A stretch of 64,000 nt of DNA, taken from the NCBI GenBank assembly GCA_945947915.1, contig CAMEZQ010000001.1:31493-95492 (forward strand). Reading direction: 5' to 3'. The translations under genes and the position numbers were made by a program. Shown one piece after another: positions 2,162 to 14,492 of this stretch. The DNA comes from an uncultured Clostridia bacterium. GTDB lineage: Bacteria; Bacillota; Clostridia; Oscillospirales; Butyricicoccaceae. Below the pieces are notes generated by a model, which did not search any database, was not told the origin of the DNA, and worked only from the letters and a program-made list of their open reading frames with translations. The stretch's first letter is position 1. Each line of letters starts with the position of its first letter.

Positions 2162-3277
2162 ATGAAGATCATTTTTGCCGGCGGCGGCACGGCGGGGCAC
2201 GTCAACCCGGCACTGGCCATCGCCGATTATATGAAAAAGAAAGATCCCGGCTGCGCCATCGCCTTTTCGGGCGGCACTGGCGGCATTGAGGAACGGCTGG
2301 TGGGCCGGGCCGGCTATCCCATTTATACATTTCCGCTGTCGGGTCTGTCGCGCAGCATGAGTCCTGCCGGCCTGCGCAGGAATATCGGCGCCGTGAAAAA
2401 TACAGTTTCGGCCATTTCGGCGGCCAAAAAGATCATTCGCCAGCAGAAGCCCGATATCGTGGTGGGCACCGGCGGCTACGCCTGTTTTCCCATGGTCTAT
2501 GCGGCGCACCTCTGTGGCGTCCGCACGGCCATGCTGGAGGTCAACGCCACCCCCGGCGTCGCCCTGCGCCAGCTGGCCAAAAAGGCCGACTGCGTCATGG
2601 TCAGCTTTGAAGAAACGGCTGCCTTTTTCAAAGACACAAAAAAAGTGGTCTACACCGGCAGCCCCGTGCGGCAGGAGCTGATCGACGGGGTGGGCAAGCC
2701 TCACGCCAAACTCTTTGACAACGACAAGCCCACGGTGCTGTGTTTCTGGGGCTCGGTGGGCGCCATGTATATGAACAAAAAGATGGAGGAATTCGTCAGC
2801 CTGCTGGCGGAAGACGGCAGCTTCAACCTGATCCAGGCCGCCGGCCGGGCCAACTATCAGTGGATGCCCGGTGAGATCCGCGACCGCGGCGTTGATCTGG
2901 ACCACTGCGGGAATATCCGTCTGACCGAATATATTTACGATATGGCCGATGTGATGAATGCCAGCGACCTGGTCATCTGCCGGGCCGGCGCCAGCACACT
3001 GGCCGAGGTCTGTGCCTGCGGCAAGCCTTCCCTCATTGTACCTTCGCCCTATGTGGCCGACAATCACCAGGAGAAAAACGCCCGGGCGCTGGAGCGTGCC
3101 GGGGCGGCGGTGGTCGCGCTGGAGCAGGAGGTGGACGGCGCCGGGCTGTTCCGGCAGGCCAAGGCGCTGCTGGACGACCGTGCCGCGCTGGCCGAGATGG
3201 GCCGCAGGGCCCGGAGCCTGGCAAAATACGACGCCCTCGACCGGATTTACGCGGCCATCGTCGATACGGTGGGATAA
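2162..3277 (+). CDS. murG: UDP-GlcNAc:lipid I N-acetylglucosaminyltransferase MurG
   Basis: N-terminal G-loop GGGTAGHVNPALA, GT28 length (371 aa), and position after ftsW. Confidence 0.92.
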   Translation: MKIIFAGGGTAGHVNPALAIADYMKKKDPGCAIAFSGGTGGIEERLVGRAGYPIYTFPLSGLSRSMSPAGLRRNIGAVKNTVSAISAAKKIIRQQKPDIVVGTGGYACFPMVYAAHLCGVRTAMLEVNATPGVALRQLAKKADCVMVSFEETAAFFKDTKKVVYTGSPVRQELIDGVGKPHAKLFDNDKPTVLCFWGSVGAMYMNKKMEEFVSLLAEDGSFNLIQAAGRANYQWMPGEIRDRGVDLDHCGNIRLTEYIYDMADVMNASDLVICRAGASTLAEVCACGKPSLIVPSPYVADNHQEKNARALERAGAAVVALEQEVDGAGLFRQAKALLDDRAALAEMGRRARSLAKYDALDRIYAAIVDTVG

Positions 3278-3382: not shown

Positions 3383-4663
3383 ATGGGTCTATTGAAGATA
3401 CGGGGCGGCAGGCCCCTGGAAGGCACGGTGGAGATCAACGGCGCCAAGAACAGCGTACTGCCCATTCTGGCCGCCACGCTGATCAACGGCGGCGTCAACG
3501 TGCTGCATAACTGTCCCGACCTGCGGGACGTGGCTTCGGCCATCCAGATCCTGGAGCATCTGGGCTGCAGGGTCAGCCGGGAGGGAAAGACGGTCATTGT
3601 CGATTCTTCGGTGGTCGACCGCTGCGATGTGCCCGACCGGCTGATGCGGGAAATGCGATCGTCGGTCATCTTTCTCGGCCCCATCATTGCCCGGTGCGGC
3701 GAGGCGCTGCTGCATACGCCGGGAGGCTGCGAACTCGGTCCGCGGCCCATCGACCTGCATCTCGACGCGCTGACCCGGCTGGGCGTATCCATACGCCGGG
3801 AGGGCGGGGCCATCCGGTGCAAGGCCGGCGACATGCGGGGGCGAGATATCCTGCTGGCTTTTCCCAGCGTCGGCGCCACCGAAAATATCATGCTGGCCGC
3901 CACGGCGTGCCGGGGCGTCACCCGCATCATCAACGCGGCGCGGGAGCCGGAGATCGAAGATCTGCAGCAGTTTCTGCGCAAGACGGGCGCCGCCTGCCGC
4001 GGCGCCGGTGAAAGCGAGATCACGGTCACGGGCGGGCCCACGGCCTTCGATACTGAACACCGCATCATGCCCGACCGCATTGAGGCGGCTACCTATCTGT
4101 GCGCGGCGGCGGCAGCCGGCGGGGATCTGACCCTGCGGAACTGCCAGCCGGCCCATTTTGGGACAGTCATTGAAAAGCTTTCCGACGGCGGCGCCGAGAT
4201 CACCGCCCGGGGCCGTACGGTGCGCATCCGCGTCCGGGAGCGGCTGCGGGCCATGCCGCTGGTGCGCACCATGCCCTATCCGGGCTTTCCCACCGACGGG
4301 CAGTCTCAGCTGATGGCGGCCGCCTGTACGGCAGCCGGAACGACGGTCTTTCAGGAGAGCATTTTTGAAAACCGCTACCGCCATGTGGGCGAGCTGGAGC
4401 GCATGGGGGCCAGGATCCGGGTCAGCGGGCGCATTGCCGTCGTCGACGGCGTCGAGCGTCTCCACGGCGCGCAGATGCAGGCCACCGACCTGCGGGGCGG
4501 CGCCGCTATGGTCATCGCGGCGCTGGCAGCCGAAGGGGAAAGCACCATCGGGGCCATCGAACATATCGACCGCGGCTACGAACATATCGAACGGGTGCTT
4601 TCCGGCGTCGGCGGTCAGATCGAGCGCGTCCGGCGGGAAGCGCCGGAAAAGAACGATACATAA
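3383..4663 (+). CDS. murA: UDP-N-acetylglucosamine 1-carboxyvinyltransferase MurA
   Basis: Active-site Cys loop TPGGCELGPRPIDLH, start MGLLKIRGGRPLEGTVEINGAKNS, 426 aa. Confidence 0.93.
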   Translation: MGLLKIRGGRPLEGTVEINGAKNSVLPILAATLINGGVNVLHNCPDLRDVASAIQILEHLGCRVSREGKTVIVDSSVVDRCDVPDRLMREMRSSVIFLGPIIARCGEALLHTPGGCELGPRPIDLHLDALTRLGVSIRREGGAIRCKAGDMRGRDILLAFPSVGATENIMLAATACRGVTRIINAAREPEIEDLQQFLRKTGAACRGAGESEITVTGGPTAFDTEHRIMPDRIEAATYLCAAAAAGGDLTLRNCQPAHFGTVIEKLSDGGAEITARGRTVRIRVRERLRAMPLVRTMPYPGFPTDGQSQLMAAACTAAGTTVFQESIFENRYRHVGELERMGARIRVSGRIAVVDGVERLHGAQMQATDLRGGAAMVIAALAAEGESTIGAIEHIDRGYEHIERVLSGVGGQIERVRREAPEKNDT

Positions 4664-4692: not shown

Positions 4693-5469
4693 TTGAGCAG
4701 ACCCAGGCCATACAAACAGGCAAAGCGGAATCGAAGGCGCAGAAAGCGAAGCTTCAGCTTCGTCGTGTCTTTTATTTGCTTTGCCCTGGTTTTGGCCGCG
4801 CTGGTTTCGGCCGCTGTCATCTTTTTCAAGATCGGCACGGTGGATGTGGTGGGGGAGAGCCGCTACAGCGCCCAGGAGATCATCGATGCCTCCGGGCTGC
4901 AGACCGGGCAGAGCATGTTTCTGTTCAATAAATTTGCCAGCATCAGCCGCATCTTTTCCGCCTGTCCGTATATCGACACCGTGCAGATGCGGCGGACGCT
5001 GCCCGACCGGATCGAGATCCTGGTGACGCCCTGCCAGCCTGCGGCGGTGATTCTGAGCGAAGGCGCCCGGTATATCATCGACGGCGGCGGGAAAATTCTG
5101 GAAAAGACAGATGAAGCCGGCGCTTCCGGCCTGCCGCAGGTGACCGGCGGGGTCCTGACATCGCCGGAAGTGGGAAAAAGGGCGGAATTTTTTGAAGAGG
5201 AAAGCGCAAAAGCCCTTTTTTCTGTATTGAATACCGCAAAAAACAATGATATACTAAATGATATAGGTGACATCGACATCTCAAAAGTATACGACATCCA
5301 ATTTGAATATATGGGCAGGTTTACCGTCCGGATCGGGTCGGCCGATGATATTGAGCGCAAGTTCAAGTTCGTTGCCGCCGTCATCGAGGCACTGGGAGAA
5401 CGCGAAAGCGGCGTCATCGATGTGTCCGACGGGCAGACGGGCTATTTCAGCCAGGGAAAAGTGAAATAA
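4693..5469 (+). CDS. ftsQ: Cell division protein FtsQ/DivIB
   Basis: Arg/Lys-rich N-tail, single TM (FSFVVSFICFALVLAALVSAAVIFF), POTRA-like region. Sits immediately upstream of ftsZ. The start is a TTG, so the 5' end is uncertain. Confidence 0.8.
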   Translation: MSRPRPYKQAKRNRRRRKRSFSFVVSFICFALVLAALVSAAVIFFKIGTVDVVGESRYSAQEIIDASGLQTGQSMFLFNKFASISRIFSACPYIDTVQMRRTLPDRIEILVTPCQPAAVILSEGARYIIDGGGKILEKTDEAGASGLPQVTGGVLTSPEVGKRAEFFEEESAKALFSVLNTAKNNDILNDIGDIDISKVYDIQFEYMGRFTVRIGSADDIERKFKFVAAVIEALGERESGVIDVSDGQTGYFSQGKVK

Positions 5470-5487
5470 TAATTTTGGAGGAAGATT

Positions 5488-6624
5488 ATGGGCTTCGCAA
5501 TTGAGACCGGTGAGGAAACCGGTGTTGTTATCAAAGTTATCGGCGTCGGCGGCGGCGGCGGCAACGCGGTCAACCGCATGGTCAATTCCGGGATCCACGG
5601 CGTGGATTTTATCGCAGTCAATACAGACAAGCAGGCGCTGAAGTTTTCGGCGGCTGACGTCAAGCTGCAGGTGGGCGAGAAGCTGACCGGCGGCCGCGGC
5701 GCCGGCTCCAAGCCGGAGATCGGCGAAAAGGCCGCCCGCGAGAGCGAGGATCAGATCCGCGAGCTGCTCAACGGCGCCAATATGGTCTTTATCACGGCCG
5801 GCATGGGCGGCGGCACGGGCACCGGCGGCGCGCCGGTCATCGCCGAGATCGCCAAGCAGATGGGGATTCTGACCATCGGCATCGTCACACGGCCTTTCTC
5901 CTGGGAAGGCAAAAAGCGCATCGAGCAGGCGTCGGCCGGCATCGAGGCTCTGAAAGAAAAGGTGGACGCGCTGGTCATCATTCCCAACGAGCGCCTCAAG
6001 CTGGTCAGCGAGCAGAAGGTCACGCTGAAAAATGCCTTTGAGATTGCCGACAGCGTTCTGCTGCAGGGCGTCCAGAGCATCAGTGAGCTGATCACCGTGC
6101 CCGGCATCATCAATCTGGACTTTGCCGATATTTCCACCGTCATGACCGACGCCGGCTATGCCCATATGGGCACAGGCCGCGCCTCCGGCAAGGAAAAGGC
6201 CGTGGAGGCCGCCAAGATGGCCATTCGCAGCCCGCTGCTGGAAACATCCATCGATGGCGCCAAGCGCGTGATCATCAACTTTACATGTTCGGAAGACATC
6301 AGCCTGGAAGAAGTGGAAGATGCCGCCGCCATGGTCCAGCAGGCAGCCCACCCCGACGTACATATCATTTGGGGCGCCGCCATCGACGATACCCTGGAGG
6401 ATGAAGTGCGTCTGAGCATTATTGCCACCGGCTTCGATACCGAGCCGCCCAAGGCGCCGGCCGCACCCAAACCGGCGGAAGCCGCCGTCGGAGAACGGGC
6501 TTTTTCCGAGGCACAGGCCAAGGCTGCGCAGGAACAGCCTGCAGCGGAGTCCAAAAAGAAAGATGAGGAGTTTGACGAGACCATCGACGTTCTCCTCAAG
6601 ATTTTCGACAGGGATAAGCACTAA
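5488..6624 (+). CDS. ftsZ: Cell division GTPase FtsZ
   Basis: Tubulin signature [20 protein letters not shown], disordered linker and conserved C-terminal peptide (IDVLLKIF). Confidence 0.97.
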
Positions 6625-6644
6625 AGTCGGGAATGTCATATTTT

Positions 6645-6680
6645 ATCCGCCGCAGGCACAGCCAGCGGCGGATATTTTTA
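6645..6680 (+). terminator. Putative intrinsic terminator/attenuator after ftsZ
   Basis: Stem ATCCGCCGC (6645-6653) pairs with GCGGCGGAT (6665-6673), 11-nt loop, followed by ATTTTTA. It ends only 22 nt before the next ATG. Confidence 0.5.
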
Positions 6681-6702
6681 ACAATGGGAGGGGAGAAGAA
6701 TC

Positions 6703-7920
6703 ATGGAGAAGAGAAAGCTGACATTGGATATTGAGGCTCGCCTGGGCAGCCAGACGGCCGACTGGAAGCTGGAAGACGGCGAGAATCTGACCTTTGGCAA
6801 AGTGTTCTCCCTACTGCTGGAGCAGCAGGGCCTGACCCGGTCGCAGCTGGCCGACCGCATGTCTGAAAGCCCGTTCAACCGGGACGAGGCCGGGGAGATC
6901 CGCGCCAAGCGCGGCTCTCTGGTGGATAAGCTGAAACGCTGGGCAGACGACCGGGCCATCCCCGATGACCGCGGAGAGCTTTTTCAGATCTGTATCCTGA
7001 TGGGGCTGCGCACCGAAGACGCGCGGCGGCTGTTTGAGCGCGGGCTGATGGCCTCCTGGGTGCATAAGGCCAACCGCGACGAGCTGATCTATCTTTTCTG
7101 CCTGGATTACGGGATGGATATCCATACGGCTTACGGGCTGATCCGGGACACCGACTTTCCGGAAATGCCGGCATCGCCCGACACGGAGGACGATTTGCCG
7201 CCGCAGACCATCACGCGGCAGGTGGGCGACGCCTACGAAGCGCTGCGGCAGCTGCTTCGCGGCATTGCGCCGGACAAGCGCGTGGCCTGCTTCAAAGAGT
7301 TTCTCCAGCGCAGCGAGGGGCTGTTTCACACCACGCGCCAGAAGCGCATGCGCATTTTCCGGGAATATTTCGAGAGTTACCGGAAGACTCACGCAACGGA
7401 GTGGGATACGGACGAAGCTGATCTGGACGGCACACCCATCGTCCGGGAGAAGATGGCCAGCATCATCAGCTTTGCCGACGATCTGCGTCTGATGCGGGTC
7501 CCCGACGCCGCCGACCTGCAGAACCTGCAAAGCGCCGAGGAACGACGGCAGATGAGCAGCCGCAAGCGCATCGCCAAACTGATCAACGACAATAAGCGGG
7601 GAGATGCCAACCCCATACGAAAAGTCATCCCCCGCTATCTTTCGGGAGAAAAAGATATCCCCAGGGATATTTTCATCAAAACCTATATCCTTTGCGAAGC
7701 CTGGCCGGATTATTACGACCTGTGCAGCCGCCTGCAGGAGGCCGGGTATCCCGATATTTATGTGCGCGCCGCCGACGGCTTCGATGCGCTGGTCTATCAT
7801 ATTTATGTGGCCAACGAAGCCATCGGCGCCGATTACGAAGCGGCCTATGAAGAGCAGGTCACCGAACTGATGACCGAGCTGCGCCAACGGCTGGACAGCG
7901 GCCAAACGCCCCGACTTTAA
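6703..7920 (+). CDS. Hypothetical protein with N-terminal HTH-like segment (405 aa)
   Basis: SD GGGAGGGGAG lies upstream of the ATG and codon usage is GC3-rich. The segment FGKVFSLLLEQQGLTRSQLADRMS resembles an XRE-type helix-turn-helix. The rest is helical with no motif I recognise. Confidence 0.75.
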   Translation: MEKRKLTLDIEARLGSQTADWKLEDGENLTFGKVFSLLLEQQGLTRSQLADRMSESPFNRDEAGEIRAKRGSLVDKLKRWADDRAIPDDRGELFQICILMGLRTEDARRLFERGLMASWVHKANRDELIYLFCLDYGMDIHTAYGLIRDTDFPEMPASPDTEDDLPPQTITRQVGDAYEALRQLLRGIAPDKRVACFKEFLQRSEGLFHTTRQKRMRIFREYFESYRKTHATEWDTDEADLDGTPIVREKMASIISFADDLRLMRVPDAADLQNLQSAEERRQMSSRKRIAKLINDNKRGDANPIRKVIPRYLSGEKDIPRDIFIKTYILCEAWPDYYDLCSRLQEAGYPDIYVRAADGFDALVYHIYVANEAIGADYEAAYEEQVTELMTELRQRLDSGQTPRL

Positions 7921-8063
7921 AACTCCGGCCGGCCGATGTCCCTGGCGGCGCGGCGGGGTATAATCAAACCGTGAAACCCAATCGAATCTCACGGAGGCGA
8001 GCGAAATGAAAGCCAGATACAGCCCAATACGAAGAAGTTACAGGAGCGTGGGGAGGTGCGGCC

Positions 8064-10877
8064 ATGCGTGAGGGGGAGACCTGCGCGGCAGTGCTGGACA
8101 GCCGCAGGCTGCGCCGGGATCACGATTTTGAAAGCCGTGTTTCTGAGATCCTGAACAGCCTTCTGCCCGAAGACCGCTGCATGATGCCGGTGGAGATGGC
8201 TGACGTTATGACGGTCTTCGACGGCGCCCGCGTCATCACCTGGAATACGTTGACGGGAGATCCCGAAGCCTGCGCCGCACGGGCGGCCGCCTGCCTCGGC
8301 CATGGGATCGACAGAATGCTTCTGATCCTCAACGGCGAAACGCTGGAAGATATCTGCTGTTTTCAGGAAGCGATCGATGCTGTCCTGGGGCCCGATGCCA
8401 TCGTCGCTTACGGGTTCAACTGCCGCCTGGAAGACGAACCCTTCCAGGTCCATATGCTTTTTCCGGCGCATGCCGATATCCGGGTCGATGCGCCGTTGCT
8501 GCTGCCGCCCGACGGCGTTCTGCGCAGCCGCAAGAACACCTATACCGGCCTGACGGCGTTTGACGCCGGCGGCACCAGCATCTGCTACCGCGCTGTTGAT
8601 GAAAACGGCGACCGTGTACTCATCAAAGAAACCTATCCGCTGTCACTGGGAACGGCCCTCCAGCGGGAGAACGACGCGCTGGTACCCGTCAGTACCGATC
8701 CGGAAATGCGCCAGGCCGTGGCCGCCATGCTGGGCAGCGCCGTCGAACGGACCATCCTGGAGCGGGAGCTGGAGAGCGACCTGCACAACCGCGGACTGGA
8801 GTTCTTTGCCAAAAATACCGATAAGTTTGAAGCCAATAATACTTTTTATACCGTTTATAACGATTACGGCCAGGGCACGTTGGCTGAGAAGCGGGGAAAG
8901 ATCCCCGTGCGCGAAGCGCTGGTGCTGACCGACCGGGTGCTGCAGCTTCTGGAGGAGCTGCACGGCGCCGGATATCTGCATCTGGATATCTCTCCGGAGA
9001 ATATTCTGCTGAGCACGGTCATCGACGGCGTCAACAGCCTGAAATTCATCGATCTGGGCAGCCTGATCGAGAAACGGTGGCTTGAGTTCTGCCAGAGCTT
9101 CCCATGCAAGGACGGCTACTCGCCCTTTGAACTGTTCAGCGCCGCCACCAGCGGCGCGGCGCGGCGGCTGGTGGGAGAACGCAGCGATACCTTTTCGGTG
9201 GCCGCCGTTTTATATAATCTGCTGACCGGCCGCACGGTCGACTGGTCGGTCTGCCGCCGGAGCAACCGCAAAATCATTCCGGCCGACGCGCCCGCCGTGT
9301 GCCTGTCCAAGAGCTGGCAGGTCTCCTTTGGTTTGGATGGTCATATCCATGCGGCGCAGATGACCGGATTGTCGCCGCGGGTCCTGGAGCAGCTCAACGA
9401 GTTTCTGAGACAGGCCCTTTCCAACAATCCCCATGTGCGCTTTCAAAGCGCCCGGGAGATGCGGGAGGCCCTGCACGCGGTCCTGCAGAGCCTGGACGAG
9501 CATCTGTATTATTTTGCCCGCATGGAAATGCCCGATGACTTTATGGACGCCGATATCCGCAAGGAAGAAGAAATGCTGGGCGGGAAAGACCACGGCAAAG
9601 CCGCCGACTGGCTCCGCCGCGGCATCCGGAACAAAAGCTATGCCGCCGAAGATATTCGCCGCACGCTGGAGTCGGGCAAAGGCGCCGTGCTCAACAAATG
9701 CCGGCTGGCCGAGTCCAAAGAGGCCGTGCGGGCGTATATCCGGCAATACGGCGGCACATATCAGGAGATCCTTTTCATCGATGAAAGCCAGTACAGCTTC
9801 GACCTTTTCAGCGGACAACTGAGCGGCCGCCACAGCGGTATGCACACCCTGGATTGTGATGAAAAGACCCTGATGGTGTTTTACGGCCGCCGGGAAGGCT
9901 TGAAAAACGGCATCGTCGAAATGGTCGACGGTCAGGGGCAGCCGGTCTATTCTCTGGAATTCGTGCGCCGCAAGGATACCAACCCCCATGTGATCCGTAT
10001 TCTGCCCTCCCGGACCAGCGGTTTGGTTTCGGCCGCTGCCGCCGGGTCGATGGTCGTCTTTACCGCACTGCCCGTCCTGCTCTGCCTGCTGGCCGGATAC
10101 TGTTTCCTCAAGTTCTACGATTCCTACCGCGCTGCCAGGCTGCTGAACATCATCCTGCATCCCGAACAGTACCCCATGAGCTACGGCTGGTCGATGCTGC
10201 GGGTCCGGGAGATCCTGGCCGACTGCGCGCTGCTGGGGCCGGCCGCCGGTGCGGCGGATCCGGTGTATGTGGTTTTCCCGGGCAGCCGGTCGCTGGCACT
10301 GCTGGAAGTCATACAGAGATGGGGGTTTCTCCCCGCCGGCGCCATGCTGCTTTTGACGCTGCTGGGCTTTTGGGCAAGCTGGAAAAAGGCGCGGCAGAGC
10401 CGGCTGTCGGCGGCGGCGTGGATGGTGATGCTTTCGCGCTGGCTGGCATACGTGATGGCCAATACGGGTCTGCTGTACCGGACGATCGGCGATCTGTGGA
10501 CCTCCAGGAGCGCCGTAGTTGTGAACATCCTTCTTTTGTCGCTGATCCTGATCTGGCCGCAGCTGGATCGGGTGCGGAAGAACAGGGATCTTCGATGGTC
10601 CGGCTGGCGCTGTTTTTACGGCGTCTTCGGACATTGGGTGTTCTGGATCATTTACAGGGCCGCTTGTTTCCGGTTGAGCGGGAGTATCGCATTTGACTAT
10701 TCGGGGCTGTTCTATCTGGCATGGTCGCTGCTTTTTGCCTCTGCTGTCGATGTTGTTCTGGAGCTGGGGGCGCGCCACGCGAAAGGCCGATGCTTTCTTT
10801 CCGAATGGCTGTTCCGCAAGCTGAAAGATGATGTGGAAGATGCTATATGGCTGGAAGAGGACGAAGCGGAAGAATAA
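8064..10877 (+). CDS. Membrane-anchored Hanks-type Ser/Thr kinase with FtsZ C-terminal-domain-like N-terminal module
   Basis: SD GGGGAGG lies 7 nt before the ATG. Kinase motifs: DAGGTSICY (Gly loop), VLIKE (beta3 Lys), HLDISPENILL (catalytic loop), FIDLGS (DFG-like), GYSPFE, SDTFSVAAVLYNLLTG. Residues ~41-135 resemble FtsZ_C (see findings). About 6 TM helices from residue ~655. Confidence 0.85.
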   Translation: MREGETCAAVLDSRRLRRDHDFESRVSEILNSLLPEDRCMMPVEMADVMTVFDGARVITWNTLTGDPEACAARAAACLGHGIDRMLLILNGETLEDICCFQEAIDAVLGPDAIVAYGFNCRLEDEPFQVHMLFPAHADIRVDAPLLLPPDGVLRSRKNTYTGLTAFDAGGTSICYRAVDENGDRVLIKETYPLSLGTALQRENDALVPVSTDPEMRQAVAAMLGSAVERTILERELESDLHNRGLEFFAKNTDKFEANNTFYTVYNDYGQGTLAEKRGKIPVREALVLTDRVLQLLEELHGAGYLHLDISPENILLSTVIDGVNSLKFIDLGSLIEKRWLEFCQSFPCKDGYSPFELFSAATSGAARRLVGERSDTFSVAAVLYNLLTGRTVDWSVCRRSNRKIIPADAPAVCLSKSWQVSFGLDGHIHAAQMTGLSPRVLEQLNEFLRQALSNNPHVRFQSAREMREALHAVLQSLDEHLYYFARMEMPDDFMDADIRKEEEMLGGKDHGKAADWLRRGIRNKSYAAEDIRRTLESGKGAVLNKCRLAESKEAVRAYIRQYGGTYQEILFIDESQYSFDLFSGQLSGRHSGMHTLDCDEKTLMVFYGRREGLKNGIVEMVDGQGQPVYSLEFVRRKDTNPHVIRILPSRTSGLVSAAAAGSMVVFTALPVLLCLLAGYCFLKFYDSYRAARLLNIILHPEQYPMSYGWSMLRVREILADCALLGPAAGAADPVYVVFPGSRSLALLEVIQRWGFLPAGAMLLLTLLGFWASWKKARQSRLSAAAWMVMLSRWLAYVMANTGLLYRTIGDLWTSRSAVVVNILLLSLILIWPQLDRVRKNRDLRWSGWRCFYGVFGHWVFWIIYRAACFRLSGSIAFDYSGLFYLAWSLLFASAVDVVLELGARHAKGRCFLSEWLFRKLKDDVEDAIWLEEDEAEE

Positions 10878-10883
10878 AAAATC

Positions 10884-10923
10884 AACGCCGGCGCACTGCT
10901 TTACCGCAGCGCGCCGGCGTTTT
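10884..10923. terminator. Bidirectional intrinsic terminator between kinase gene and flavodoxin gene
   Basis: AACGCCGGCGCACTGC / GCAGCGCGCCGGCGTT forms 15 bp with 1 mismatch and a 6-nt loop. Flanked by an A-run upstream and a T-run downstream. Confidence 0.8.
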
Positions 10924-10955
10924 GCTCTGGATGGGGTTTCTTGACGCAAGCCTTG

Positions 10956-11414
10956 TTACAGGGCGGCCAGCCAGGCCCGGAGGTCTTCCACGGCCAGCTC
11001 GGTTCCCTTGATGGAGAGCAGCGGCCCGATGTCGGCCCCGGGGCAGAGCTTCTGCAGGTCGGCCGCGATCTTGCCGGGACCGCCGCCGCCGTGGGTGCAG
11101 AAGGGGAGGATGCGCAGGCCGTCGGTGGATACGCCGGCCAGAAAAGCGGCCACGGGCGGCGCCATGGTGCCGCACCAGTTGGGGGTGCCCAGCAGCAGAC
11201 GGGTGACGCCGGTCAGATCGGGAATGTCGGCAAGCGGCGGCAGAAAGCCGTTTTGGATCTCCTGCCAGGCCTGGGCGGCCAGGGGTTTGTATTCGCCGGG
11301 ATAGGGGGCGGCCGGGGTCAGCGCCGCGCAGGGCGCGCCGGTCTGTTCCGCGATCCTGCGGGCTGCCGCGCCGGTGTTGCCGCCGTGGGAATAATAGACG
11401 ATCAGCGTTTTCAT
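10956..11414 (-). CDS. Flavodoxin
   Basis: MKTLIVYYSHGGNTGAAARRIAE FMN-binding N-terminus; 152 aa. Confidence 0.85.
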   Translation of the reverse strand: MKTLIVYYSHGGNTGAAARRIAEQTGAPCAALTPAAPYPGEYKPLAAQAWQEIQNGFLPPLADIPDLTGVTRLLLGTPNWCGTMAPPVAAFLAGVSTDGLRILPFCTHGGGGPGKIAADLQKLCPGADIGPLLSIKGTELAVEDLRAWLAAL

Positions 11415-11532
11415 AAAAGGGCTCCTTCCGTGTCGGCTGGATTTTGTATGTATTATGTATATTGATATGATATACCCGCGGACGGGGGCGGTGTCAATGC
11501 AAACCGCCGCTTTATTGAATTTTTCGTTGGCG

Positions 11533-11561
11533 TTGCCAGCTTCATCGATCTGATGTATAAT
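11533..11561 (+). promoter_or_regulatory. Sigma-A-type promoter upstream of ung
   Basis: TTGCCA (11533-11538), 17-nt spacer, TATAAT (11556-11561) preceded by TG. Confidence 0.55.
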
Positions 11562-11599
11562 GACAAAAAAGAGGATATTCCGACAGGAGGCAGCGCGGC

Positions 11600-12274
11600 A
11601 TGGTCCACATCGGCAATCAATGGGACGAGATCCTCGCCGAGGATTTCGCTTCGGAAAACTACGCCAATATCCGTAAATTTCTCAAGCGGGAATACGGCAC
11701 CTATACCGTTTATCCCGATATGTACGATATCTTCAATGCTCTGAAGACCACCGACTACGACGACGTCAACGCCGTTATCCTGGGGCAGGACCCCTATCAC
11801 GGCCCCGGGCAGGCCCACGGCTACGCCTTTTCTGTGCGGCCGGGCGTGGCCATTCCGCCGTCGCTGATCAATATCTACAAAGAGCTGCAGGCGGAGACCG
11901 GCATGGCTATCCCCGACCACGGCTGTCTGCTGGGCTGGGCCAGGCAGGGCGTTCTGCTGCTCAACACGGCGCTGACCGTCCGGGCAGCCAGCCCCAATTC
12001 CCACAGGGACTGCGGCTGGAGCCTTCTGACCGACAGCATCATTCAAAAGCTCAGCCAGCGGGAGCGGCCCATGGTCTTTATGCTGTGGGGGGCCAACGCA
12101 AAGGCCAAGCAGCGGCTGATCCGGAACCCCGCCCATCTGGTCCTGACGGCGGCCCATCCGTCGCCGCTGTCGGCCCACAACGGCTTTTTCGGCTGCGGAC
12201 ATTTCGTGCAGGCCAACGAATTTCTGGCCAAAGAGGGGCGCGCCATCGATTGGAGCGATCTGCCTCGGGAATAG
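11600..12274 (+). CDS. ung: Uracil-DNA glycosylase (family 1)
   Basis: GQDPYHGPGQAHGYAFSV and AAHPSPLSA motifs; 224 aa. Confidence 0.95.
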   Translation: MVHIGNQWDEILAEDFASENYANIRKFLKREYGTYTVYPDMYDIFNALKTTDYDDVNAVILGQDPYHGPGQAHGYAFSVRPGVAIPPSLINIYKELQAETGMAIPDHGCLLGWARQGVLLLNTALTVRAASPNSHRDCGWSLLTDSIIQKLSQRERPMVFMLWGANAKAKQRLIRNPAHLVLTAAHPSPLSAHNGFFGCGHFVQANEFLAKEGRAIDWSDLPRE

Positions 12275-13057
12275 GCCGTCCAGCGCCATGCGCGTATCGT
12301 CGATGTCTGCCGGCGCGATCTTGATATCGTTGCTAATGCCGACTGCGCTTCCGTTGATAGAGCCAGCGGCGCCTCCGCTGAGTATTGTTCCATCTGCACC
12401 AAGGATTTCAAGGTCGCCGCCGTGAACAAATACAGAAACGCCCAGGCGCTCAAGTTCTGTTTGCGTTGCTGCGGCATTTTTACTTCTGTCTTTATGCGCT
12501 ATTTCCGTAAAACGAACAGGTCGTCCAGATCCTCTTCCGTTATTTCCCGATCCATCTTTTCGAAGAACTCTGCAAGTCTGCCCTCTTCTTTCAGCTTCTT
12601 CATAAAATCTGCGTTCCGTTTTGCTGCTGTCTTTGCCTTCTCCGATGGTTTCCAATTCGGATCTCTCTGTATAATTTTCAGCAAATCGTCCATCTTTGTT
12701 CTCCTTCATGGAATACTTTTCTTCGATTGTACCGCCGTTTTCTCCAGACTGCAAGGCTTTGTCCTTCGGGCTGAACTTAACGTCCCGGTCAGACATCTCG
12801 GCCGCTTCAGACTTGACAGTATTTCCCTGCTGTGATACAATGACATCAAAAGCACCACCATGCAACGCGGCCTTATTGGCCGCCAACCTGGTCTCCCTTT
12901 TTTGGAGATCAATTGCATCGGCGGTGTTTTCTTTTATTCCTACAATGTCGTAAAGATATTTCTTGCCATTTACAGGAAAAGCAAACGAGCTGTCATAGCG
13001 ATACATTCCGTCTCGCGCATGGCGGCATTGCCGCTCAGGATGCGCTGTGAGAAACAA
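12275..13057 (-). pseudogene. AT-rich, frame-broken relic of a foreign (possibly phage/ICE) gene
   Basis: The region is visibly AT-richer than its flanks. Protein-like pieces sit in two frames. Frame A has DGMYRYDSSFAFPVNGKKYLYDIVGIKE...DVKFSPKDKA and ELERLGVSVFVHGGDLEILGADGTILSGGAAGSINGSAVGISND. Frame B has the 64-aa ORF at 12499-12693. There is no credible start: TTG at 13057 abuts the lgt terminator. There is no own stop either: the frame runs on antisense into ung. Confidence 0.5.
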
Positions 13058-13102: not shown

Positions 13103-14308
13103 TTACAGCTCCAGGACCTTTTTGAAGACGGCCTCAACATCGCTCTTTTCGGCGTGGCCCTCGAAGAGCTTGTCCTTTCCGACGAAGTAGGAGGGGACGT
13201 AGTAGTAGTCATACTGCTCGGCCAGCGCGGCTTCCTTGGCCTCGTTGACCATGGTGATGTGGATGTCCCGGTATTCGGGATGTTCTGCCATCAGTTCCTC
13301 CTGGAACCGGATGGCCAGCTTGCAGTGGGGGCAGTTGGGCAGCATAAACAGGGTCAGTTCTTTCATGGGGGATTCCTCCTTTTTTAGTTCGGCCGCGGCA
13401 TCGGTGGCCGTGTCGGCCGTGGGATCGTTGTGAGTGCGGTTTGCCTCCGCCGGTTCAAAGACCGGGATGCCGTCTGCCGCCGGCGCTTCGGCGCCGCGTA
13501 CGCGGAAGATGGGGCAGGACAGATACCGTTTGGTGCGGCGCAGCCAGAGCCAGAGTCCCAGTGCTGCGGCGAAGAGGACGGCCGAGAGAAGCTGGGAGAC
13601 CCGGATGCCGGTGGCGCCGATATACAGGCTGTCGGTGCGCAGGCCCTCGATGAGCATGCGGCCGAAGCCGTACCAGATCAGATAGAGCAGGAAAAGCTCG
13701 CCGTCGAAGCGGCGCTTTTTGGAGTATTTGTGGAGCAGCAGAAAGCCCAGGGCGTTCCACAGGGACTCGTAGAGGAAGGTGGGGTGGACCGGCGCGCCGC
13801 CGTTAATGGACATGCCCCAGGGCAGGGAGGTCGCGCCGCCGAAGGCCTCGCAGTTGACGAAATTGCCCCACCGGCCGATGGACTGGCCGATTAGAAAGCC
13901 CAGGCTGGCCAGGTCGAGAGGCGGCAGGATGCGCCTTTTGCGGAATTTGCACACCAGGCAGCCGGCGAGGATGGCGCCGATAAGGCCGCCGTAAATGGCC
14001 AGGCCGCCGCCGCGGATATTGAAAATTTCAGACAGGTGGGCCCCGTAGTAGCTCCAGCGGAAGGCCACATAATAGAGCCGCGCGCCCAGAATGGCGGCCG
14101 GCAGGCAGACGATGAGCAGGTCGAGGACGAAATCGGCGTCAAAGCCGAATTCCCGTGCGCGGCAGATGCCGTAGAGGGCGGCCAGCAGAAAGCCTGTGCC
14201 GATGATGACGCCGTACCACATGATATCCTGCCCGAACAGGGTAAAGGCCACGCGGTCGAGGGTCAGCGTCCCGTCAAACAGGCCGGGAAAAGCGATGGTG
14301 TTTTGCAT
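13103..14308 (-). CDS. lgt: Prolipoprotein diacylglyceryl transferase Lgt fused in frame to a C-terminal CPHC thioredoxin-fold domain
   Basis: Lgt motifs: GLAIYGGLIGAILAG, HPTFLYESLWN, GRMLIEGLRTD. The C-terminal 87 aa, MKELTLFMLPNCPHCKLA...YVPSYFVGKDKLFEG, is glutaredoxin/thioredoxin-like. Start chosen at the ATG at 14308 (MQNTIAFPG); the ORF-track start at 14470 is a TTG. Confidence 0.85.
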   Translation of the reverse strand: MQNTIAFPGLFDGTLTLDRVAFTLFGQDIMWYGVIIGTGFLLAALYGICRAREFGFDADFVLDLLIVCLPAAILGARLYYVAFRWSYYGAHLSEIFNIRGGGLAIYGGLIGAILAGCLVCKFRKRRILPPLDLASLGFLIGQSIGRWGNFVNCEAFGGATSLPWGMSINGGAPVHPTFLYESLWNALGFLLLHKYSKKRRFDGELFLLYLIWYGFGRMLIEGLRTDSLYIGATGIRVSQLLSAVLFAAALGLWLWLRRTKRYLSCPIFRVRGAEAPAADGIPVFEPAEANRTHNDPTADTATDAAAELKKEESPMKELTLFMLPNCPHCKLAIRFQEELMAEHPEYRDIHITMVNEAKEAALAEQYDYYYVPSYFVGKDKLFEGHAEKSDVEAVFKKVLEL

Positions 14309-14463
14309 GAAAAAATGTACCTTTCTGCGAAGTATAGTGCGGCGCAGGGCGGAAAAGGCGCCCTTGCCTATGGGGACATTATACAATGCCGCATCTGTGG
14401 GCGCAAGCGGAAAAAGCGCGTGGGCACGCGGAAAAAGACACGAAAAAAACTGAAAATCTTTGC

Positions 14464-14492
14464 TTGACAAACGAAAGATTTTGTAGTATCAT
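14464..14492 (+). promoter_or_regulatory. Near-consensus sigma-A promoter of ylxM-ffh operon
   Basis: TTGACA (14464-14469), 17-nt spacer, TATCAT (14487-14492). Confidence 0.7.

Follow-up and report, generated by a model that had tools for sequence, protein, structure and literature searches.

A Hanks-type kinase with a half-FtsZ module encoded in the division gene cluster of uncultured gut Clostridia

Why should the gene that closes a division and cell-wall cluster begin with a segment resembling one half of FtsZ and then continue into a protein kinase? The question is raised by a stretch of 64,000 nucleotides from an uncultured Clostridia bacterium of the Butyricicoccaceae (GenBank assembly GCA_945947915.1, contig CAMEZQ010000001.1, positions 31,493 to 95,492), hereafter the window, where the open reading frame (ORF) 8064-10877 on the plus strand is the final gene of a dcw-type (division and cell-wall) cluster. 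It encodes 937 aa from an ATG start lying 7 nt downstream of a GGAGG at 8052-8056, and in the alignment its start position is common to the full-length homologues. The translation comprises a module resembling the GTPase-activating (C-terminal) domain of FtsZ, a Hanks-type kinase, an uncharacterised domain and six predicted transmembrane (TM) helices. A first-pass annotation had described this 937-aa product as encoded two genes and 1.4 kb past ftsZ, with an FtsZ_C-like segment at residues 41-135. Both statements hold: the peptide is positioned correctly, the FtsZ segment quoted beside it falls within the FtsZ encoded at 5488-6624, and 1.44 kb containing a single gene (6703-7920) separates the end of ftsZ from the start of the kinase gene. 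The overall architecture proposed there, an FtsZ_C-like module without the GTP-binding domain joined to a Hanks kinase and about six TM helices at an atypical position after ftsZ, is also supported by what follows.

The N-terminal module and its relation to FtsZ

Seven homologues of the kinase were found among 5.8 billion proteins, and the family does not extend beyond four species-level lineages of uncultured Clostridia from animal guts. The N-termini of seven family sequences were combined into a profile of the module (alignment A2; aa 1-138 of the window protein, 8064-8477, plus strand). When 177,635 PDB sequences were searched with hmmsearch, the six best matches of this profile were all FtsZ (E 0.005-0.03), aligned to residues 223-329 of M. 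jannaschii FtsZ, which correspond to the end of H7, the T7 loop and the C-terminal domain. Comparison of A2 by hhalign with five FtsZ sequences from the same genomes gives P=4.9e-5 and a score of 37.2 over 85 columns (module 29-113, FtsZ 206-302), against 12.4 +/- 2.2 for 200 column shuffles and 13.3 for the reversed profile. An AlphaFold2 (AF2) model of the module reaches a pLDDT of 85 and a pTM of 0.80, and all 50 of its 50 best Foldseek matches in the PDB are FtsZ (E 2.7e-5 to 1e-3, TMq 0.51-0.62, 103-142 aligned columns). Profile search, profile alignment and predicted structure thus agree that the resemblance first noticed by eye exceeds chance, the real hhalign score standing well clear of the shuffle maximum of 22.6. 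Most of the register drawn by eye is reproduced by the profile alignment, namely ADxxTV, the hydrophobic strand, LE(D/E) and PD-x-x-I-x-x-G.

The elements predicted for the module are a strand (10-17), a helix (22-33) that aligns to the end of the FtsZ core helix H7, and equivalents of H8, S7, H9, S8, H10, S9 and S10. The fold of the FtsZ/tubulin C-terminal domain (H8-S7-H9-S8-H10-S9-S10) is therefore represented in the prediction, and the profile matches are confined to that region of FtsZ. The module begins within the H7 equivalent. The N-terminal GTP-binding domain is absent: Pfam Tubulin (PF00091) finds no match on the 937 aa, as against 168.7 bits for the neighbouring FtsZ, and the protein does not have the Rossmann-type domain with GGGTG(S/T)G of a complete FtsZ.

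Not every comparison recovers the relationship. Pairwise BLASTP between the kinase N-terminus and the neighbouring FtsZ is not significant (E>1). Pfam, FtsZ_C (PF12327) included, returns nothing at E<=10 for the window N-terminus alone, so that the FtsZ_C assignment of the first-pass annotation finds Pfam support in one of seven family members (E=0.0017) and none in the window sequence; the module stays below the gathering threshold of 27 bits. The probability that hhalign assigns is no higher than 68%. Run against 1.84 billion representative proteins, the module profile returned family members, fragments and spurious matches only (the one inspected is a tandem-repeat protein), with FtsZ not significant, an outcome that the size of the database makes unavoidable. 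Such results are what one would expect if there were no homology and chance, or a common small alpha/beta fold, had been over-read in a by-eye alignment. We consider this very improbable, since independent sequence profiles and the structure search converge on FtsZ, each on its correct region, and since the shuffled and reversed controls score far below the real comparison. Nor does a generic fold account for the match: in a viral structure library Foldseek found nothing significant for the model, and similar small alpha/beta folds such as YjgF and RusA reached only E 0.02-0.3 with TMq 0.25-0.4. Other proteins of alpha/beta fold thus score two to four orders of magnitude worse than FtsZ, which argues that the match is specific.

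As judged from profiles and the predicted model, the N-terminus of the kinase is homologous, though strongly diverged, to the GTPase-activating domain of FtsZ and covers it from the end of H7 through S10, and its relation to FtsZ_C is, at the level of sequence, a remote homology lying beyond the current Pfam model. Module and FtsZ_C share the predicted fold, the order of elements, a T7/H8 motif of the form x-x-[DE]-x-A-D-x-x-T-V and an S9 motif PDAxxxxG. They differ in that the module is only ~15-20% identical to FtsZ, lacks the GTP-binding domain, the flexible linker and the C-terminal peptide, carries an extra N-terminal strand and sits N-terminal to a kinase. The adjacent ftsZ (5488-6624) is a possible evolutionary source of the module; the profile scores carry no signal either way on an origin by duplication of that gene, because local FtsZ (18.8-20.6 bits) and archaeal FtsZ (19.7 bits) score alike.

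Conserved interface elements and the question of subunit mimicry

What has the module kept of FtsZ? The stretches matching FtsZ best are the T7-loop/H8 motif and S8-H10-S9. The first, PVEMADVMTVFD (aa 42-53, 8187-8222, plus strand, from the family and FtsZ alignments), includes PVEMADVMTVF in the window and corresponds to SIDLADLQTVM, QLDLADLKTLV and SIDMADIKTCM in other lineages. Only four residues of the module never vary in the family; one of them is Asp47 of this motif, which falls on the second catalytic Asp of the T7 loop in FtsZ (D213 in S. aureus). At the position equivalent to D210, four of five lineages have an acidic residue (Glu in the window, Asp in three) and one paralogue has Gln. 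The second-best-conserved stretch common to module and FtsZ is the S9-like strand PDAIVAYG (aa 110-117, 8391-8414, plus strand), which the profile alignments place on FtsZ PDVHIIWG. In S. aureus FtsZ, the lower subunit has its GTPase site completed by residues N208, D210 and D213 from the subunit above, and the S9 backbone contributes to the longitudinal interface (PMC8936486).

The module parts best conserved with FtsZ, T7/H8 and S9, therefore both belong to the longitudinal interface of the filament (PMC8936486). Together with the invariant Asp47, the acidic first Asp position in four of five lineages, and the synteny of ftsZ, X (the gene at 6703-7920) and the kinase gene across four lineages with just 33-48% identity between their kinases, this supports a tentative proposal to which we give somewhat less than even chances, namely that the half-FtsZ module grips FtsZ by imitating the next subunit of the filament. 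The presumed partner is the FtsZ encoded at 5488-6624. As the next subunit would, the module would dock on the nucleotide-bearing ("top") face of FtsZ, be it a monomer or the terminal subunit in a protofilament, and would do so through its own T7/H8 and S9 face. The membrane-anchored kinase would then be held on FtsZ and could phosphorylate FtsZ, protein X or other division proteins, FtsZ and protein X being the obvious candidate substrates. Because the module has no top face of its own, an occupied FtsZ end could not be extended, so that docking would also cap the filament, at the end opposite to that targeted by MciZ, MinC and MipZ. The six-TM domain would anchor the protein and may supply an input from the membrane or envelope.

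Elements of such a scheme have parallels. The two domains of FtsZ fold independently (PMC7327170), and plant ARC3 is a precedent for a regulator built from an FtsZ-like domain: there, a domain derived from FtsZ has found a new use in a protein that forms no filament but binds FtsZ and controls assembly of the Z-ring (PMC12232670). ARC3, a Z-ring inhibitor, is the closest functional analogue of the proposed role, yet it consists of FtsZ-like, middle and MORN domains, is eukaryotic, chloroplast-located and soluble, carries no kinase domain and has no evolutionary link to the window protein. With MciZ, MinC, MipZ and SulA the parallel lies in the proposed outcome, a longitudinal FtsZ interface occupied and FtsZ thereby capped or sequestered; these proteins, however, are unrelated in sequence to FtsZ and bind the face of its C-terminal domain (the "bottom", plus-end face), whereas a mimic consisting of the GTPase-activating domain alone would take the top face.

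Several observations weigh against subunit mimicry. The Asn of the T7 signature NxDxxD is lost everywhere, being replaced by Pro, Ser or Gln, and in the downstream paralogue of one lineage the motif reads QAQIED, so that the first Asp is lost as well. The AF2 model of the module was built on seven sequences only. Between lineages, the module has a mean pairwise identity of 20%, the kinase of 54% and the mid domain of 36%, which makes the module the fastest-evolving cytoplasmic part of the protein, while FtsZ in the same genomes is 70-90% identical; stronger conservation would be expected of a face that has to fit the GTP face of FtsZ, itself highly conserved. Finally, synteny among fairly close relatives within the conserved dcw cluster is weak functional evidence. 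Close strains give dN/dS values of ~0.37 in the module and ~0.08 in the kinase (both from small counts); the module is thus maintained, but loosely.

Rapid divergence under relaxed constraint and the eroded T7 signature are equally what a relic would show, that is, an exapted domain derived from FtsZ but no longer touching it, with a regulatory, dimerisation or autoinhibitory role for the kinase or a role in binding X, the adjacency to ftsZ merely marking where the fusion arose. To this may be added that the H9-S8 loop, which in FtsZ holds the SPLLE motif, is shortened, that Arg17 and Cys70 are invariant in the family and have no FtsZ counterpart, and that other kinases of this sub-family carry sensor or scaffold domains of unrelated kinds (STAND, TPR), which makes N- and C-terminal additions look like interchangeable accessories. 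Nevertheless, the most FtsZ-like stretches of the module are interface elements (T7/H8 and S9) and not just its hydrophobic core, Asp47 is invariant, and module, X and adjacency to ftsZ strictly co-occur. We judge the relic to be somewhat unlikely, though a serious contender.

The kinase, the membrane domain and their relatives

The linker and Hanks-type Ser/Thr kinase domain occupy aa 139-470 (8478-9473, plus strand). Pfam Pkinase (PF00069) scores 41.2 bits against a cut-off of 31.7, which places the domain among the Hanks kinases, and the VLIKE, HLD, PEN and IDLG motifs on which the first-pass annotation based an apparently active core are found where it put them. They form part of a fuller set: a Gly-rich loop GGTSICY (169-175), VLIKE (185-189, with Lys188), Glu233/237, the catalytic loop HLDISPEN (306-313, 8979-9002, with Asp308 and Asn313), IDLGS (329-333, with DLG at 330-332 and Asp330) and SPFE (353-356). 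K188, E233/E237, D308, N313, D330 and SPFE 353-356 are invariant among eight sequences. The catalytic loop is of the non-RD type, with Ser310 at the position of the usual Lys. The best solved relative, PpkA (E=4e-7), to which the N-lobe aligns, has the loop HRDISLDN and likewise Ser for Lys; since PpkA is annotated as a Ser/Thr kinase and shares the unusual D-I-S-x-x-N loop with the window kinase, Ser310 is no evidence for a pseudokinase. From its motifs, the kinase looks competent.

A conserved cytoplasmic mid domain follows (aa 471-648, 9474-10007, plus strand), alpha/beta by prediction, with 25 invariant alignment columns and an invariant EILFIDE(S) stretch (9765-9788). It has no match among PDB sequences. 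The AF2 model of residues 468-937 is poor (pLDDT 60.6), with no more than moderate confidence over the mid domain, and Foldseek found nothing for it below E=0.3, only faint AAA+/STAND-like rows. A decayed STAND NTPase, suggested by the Walker B-like EILFIDES and by the NACHT domains of relatives, was considered and rejected, as hhalign against the post-kinase region of those relatives gives P=0.23. A homology search with the alignment of the C-terminal half returned no matches, the family itself included, probably because it was swamped by TM-like words. The membrane domain (aa 649-905, 10008-10778, plus strand) holds six hydrophobic segments, in line with the roughly six TM helices first proposed; from hydropathy and AF2 helices they are predicted at 655-682, 756-773, 783-804, 817-834, 850-869 and 881-901. 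The first outside loop, of ~70 aa, bears a conserved CALLGP motif, and Lys/Arg-rich loops on the kinase side predict, by the positive-inside rule, a topology with both termini inside. The 7TMR-DISM_7TM family (PF07695) scores 20.8 bits (E=4e-4), below its cut-off of 29, and six segments are present, not seven. The protein ends in a cytoplasmic tail (aa 906-937, 10779-10874, plus strand) that finishes in the acidic stretch DDVEDAIWLEEDEAEE; its acidic character is conserved across the family. As a look-alike of the FtsZ C-terminal peptide, the tail bears too weak a resemblance for any claim.

How far does this assembly differ from known kinases? PknA and StkP are reported to phosphorylate FtsZ and other divisome proteins. 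The window protein shares with PknB/PknA, PrkC and StkP the character of a membrane-bound Hanks-type Ser/Thr kinase, here one encoded with division genes. In contrast, PknB, PrkC and StkP have a single TM helix and extracellular PASTA repeats directing them to the septum, whereas the window kinase has six TM helices, an FtsZ-derived module and the non-RD HLDISPEN loop. There is no Pfam PASTA match, and the NCBIfam model PknB_PASTA_kin reaches 42.5 bits where 450 are required, its match being limited to the kinase core. The nearest fusion found in the literature involves the other half of FtsZ: four planctomycete FtsZl1 proteins carry an N-terminal protein-kinase domain (Makarova and Koonin 2010, PMC2875224) and thus likewise unite a Ser/Thr kinase and an FtsZ-superfamily domain in one bacterial polypeptide (PMC2875224). 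What FtsZl1 retains, however, is the GTP-binding half, with no FtsZ-type C-terminal domain detectable (PMC2875224), while the window protein has the C-terminal half only. The two further differ in domain order, and the FtsZl1 kinases have a coiled coil and a VWA/OmpA neighbourhood in place of six TM helices and a dcw cluster. Our literature search found no FtsZ_C-kinase fusion, so that the description of such a fusion as new, made in the first-pass annotation, holds within the literature searched; there, the protein represents known parts in an undescribed combination.

The nearest kinases outside the family are 26-31% identical, have an HLDISPxN loop and place the kinase domain first, without an N-terminal module. 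They come from various gut and environmental metagenomes and metagenome-assembled genomes (MAGs), they have no ftsZ, ftsQ or X within 5-8 kb, and those checked are kinase-NACHT/NB-ARC-TPR proteins. Module and ftsZ neighbourhood therefore go together, and module, X and this neighbourhood appear to co-occur in one small clade. The window protein is not itself of the kinase-STAND-TPR type: its relatives have NACHT/NB-ARC and TPR matches, but Pfam finds no NACHT/NB-ARC-type P-loop NTPase after its kinase domain. A wider Hanks-kinase sub-family with an HLDISP[DEGN]N loop was also noted (loci L012-L082; e.g., L062 4941-7817, L020 4666-7560 and L052 4650-7553). It occurs in gut Firmicutes and in Alphaproteobacteria (Yoonia, Hyphomicrobium), and among six members checked, five have NACHT/NB-ARC/AAA-type (STAND-like) matches, mostly weak, and two have TPR matches.

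A further alternative is an integrated decoy or sensor, in which the module would bind not FtsZ but its attackers (MinC-, MciZ- or SulA-like proteins, or phage inhibitors), and binding would activate the kinase in a checkpoint or anti-phage response. Besides the kinase-STAND-TPR proteins being its closest relatives, the kinase domain scores best against models of defence kinases (PD-T4-6, 63 bits; MkoA; mad6). MciZ, MinC and MipZ target H10, the S8-H10 loop and the T7 region of the FtsZ C-terminal domain (PMC9897490), exactly the elements that the module has; an immune protein is known that is triggered by FtsZ when a phage protein is bound to it (PMC13423816); and fast evolution of the module is as expected of a bait under conflict. 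Against this, the PADLOC and NCBIfam matches span the generic kinase core only and fall far below the curated cut-offs (MAD6 31 vs 460, PglW 25 vs 990). None of the defence kinases compared (PD-T4-6, Mokosh MkoA, MADS mad6, BREX PglW) matches beyond that core. In all lineages the gene lies in the core dcw cluster and not in a defence island, with division and housekeeping genes as neighbours and no other defence genes nearby, and dN/dS of the module is below 1. We therefore consider a decoy or sensor improbable. More improbable still is its specific form, in which the module is a bait imitating the inhibitor-attacked surface of FtsZ and switching on the kinase; it would guard the division machinery and be the bacterial equivalent of the integrated decoys found in plant immune receptors.

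The division locus and its bearing on FtsZ regulation

The cluster that the kinase gene closes runs entirely on the plus strand. It comprises a Glycos_transf_4 (MraY-type) gene (31-933), ftsW (952-2142), murG (2162-3277), a murA-type gene (3383-4663), ftsQ/divIB (4693-5469), a canonical ftsZ (5488-6624; 378 aa, Tubulin and FtsZ_C domains at 168.7 and 112.4 bits in Pfam) and gene X (6703-7920), which encodes a soluble protein of 405 aa. No ftsA is found between ftsQ/divIB and ftsZ, either in the window (4693-6624) or in any of the related loci (L001, L003, L006, L009). The order ftsQ-ftsZ-X-kinase is kept in every lineage that has the family, and X always lies between ftsZ and the kinase gene. 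With 6 homologues among 5.8 billion proteins, protein X equals the kinase family in rarity. It has 60 invariant columns over nine homologues and gives no match in Pfam, PDB, NCBIfam or PADLOC, and it may be a partner or a substrate of the kinase. By eye only, its N-terminus, TFGKVFSLLLEQQGLTRSQLADRM, resembles a helix-turn-helix.

The two named MAGs with the family come from goat cecum and colon, the other records being MAG and metagenome or read-archive assemblies. In one lineage, two kinase paralogues stand in tandem after ftsZ-X (L003 7088-9988 and 10001-12715; the same in L004, L005 and L006). Its upstream copy retains the FtsZ-like T7 motif QLDLAD, and the downstream copy, with QAQIED, has the most diverged module. 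The window gene and its counterpart in strain P0002 (L084 2259-5090) are nearly identical in module and kinase (dS 0.01-0.03) and much less so in the mid domain, TM domain and tail (dS 0.20-0.64), a mosaic divergence that suggests inter-strain recombination inside the gene.

Downstream, the kinase gene converges on a flavodoxin gene (10956-11414, minus strand), and between the two lies a 16-bp GC-rich inverted repeat or hairpin (10884-10921) of terminator-like appearance, its T-run being on the minus strand. A promoter scan of 5300-11500 found no sigma-70-like site, and Rfam has no match in the entire window. Further on are a uracil-DNA glycosylase gene (11600-12274, plus strand) and lgt (13103-14470, minus strand). 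The ORFs 10941-11465 (plus strand, 174 aa) and 11453-13057 (minus strand, 534 aa) were rejected as genes, being largely artefacts of the 60% G+C, since they overlap the real flavodoxin and uracil-DNA glycosylase genes on the opposite strand; the initial part of the 534-aa ORF (~12300-13057, minus strand) is not explained by that overlap. The lgt ORF as listed encodes 455 aa, against 387-401 aa in relatives, and residues 372-446 give weak glutaredoxin/thioredoxin-like matches (E ~1e-3, below cut-offs). The extra length may represent a C-terminal extension of thioredoxin fold, or the TTG start may have been called too far upstream.

What would subunit mimicry mean for the regulation of FtsZ? The host range is tiny and uncultured, four animal-gut Clostridia lineages, and a function is here only inferred. 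The characterised FtsZ end-binders and inhibitors that we found described (MciZ, MinC, MipZ) are not related to FtsZ, and the face they attack is that of its C-terminal domain. If the proposal is true, the kinase would be the first case of a regulator acting as a subunit mimic, addressing the opposite, nucleotide-bearing face; it could cap the other end of the filament or even trigger GTP hydrolysis in the terminal subunit. The isolated 138-aa module could then become a probe of FtsZ filament polarity and treadmilling. For the bacteria themselves, a kinase, a membrane domain and such a module joined in one protein of the division operon would be a simple way to tie phosphorylation signalling physically to FtsZ.

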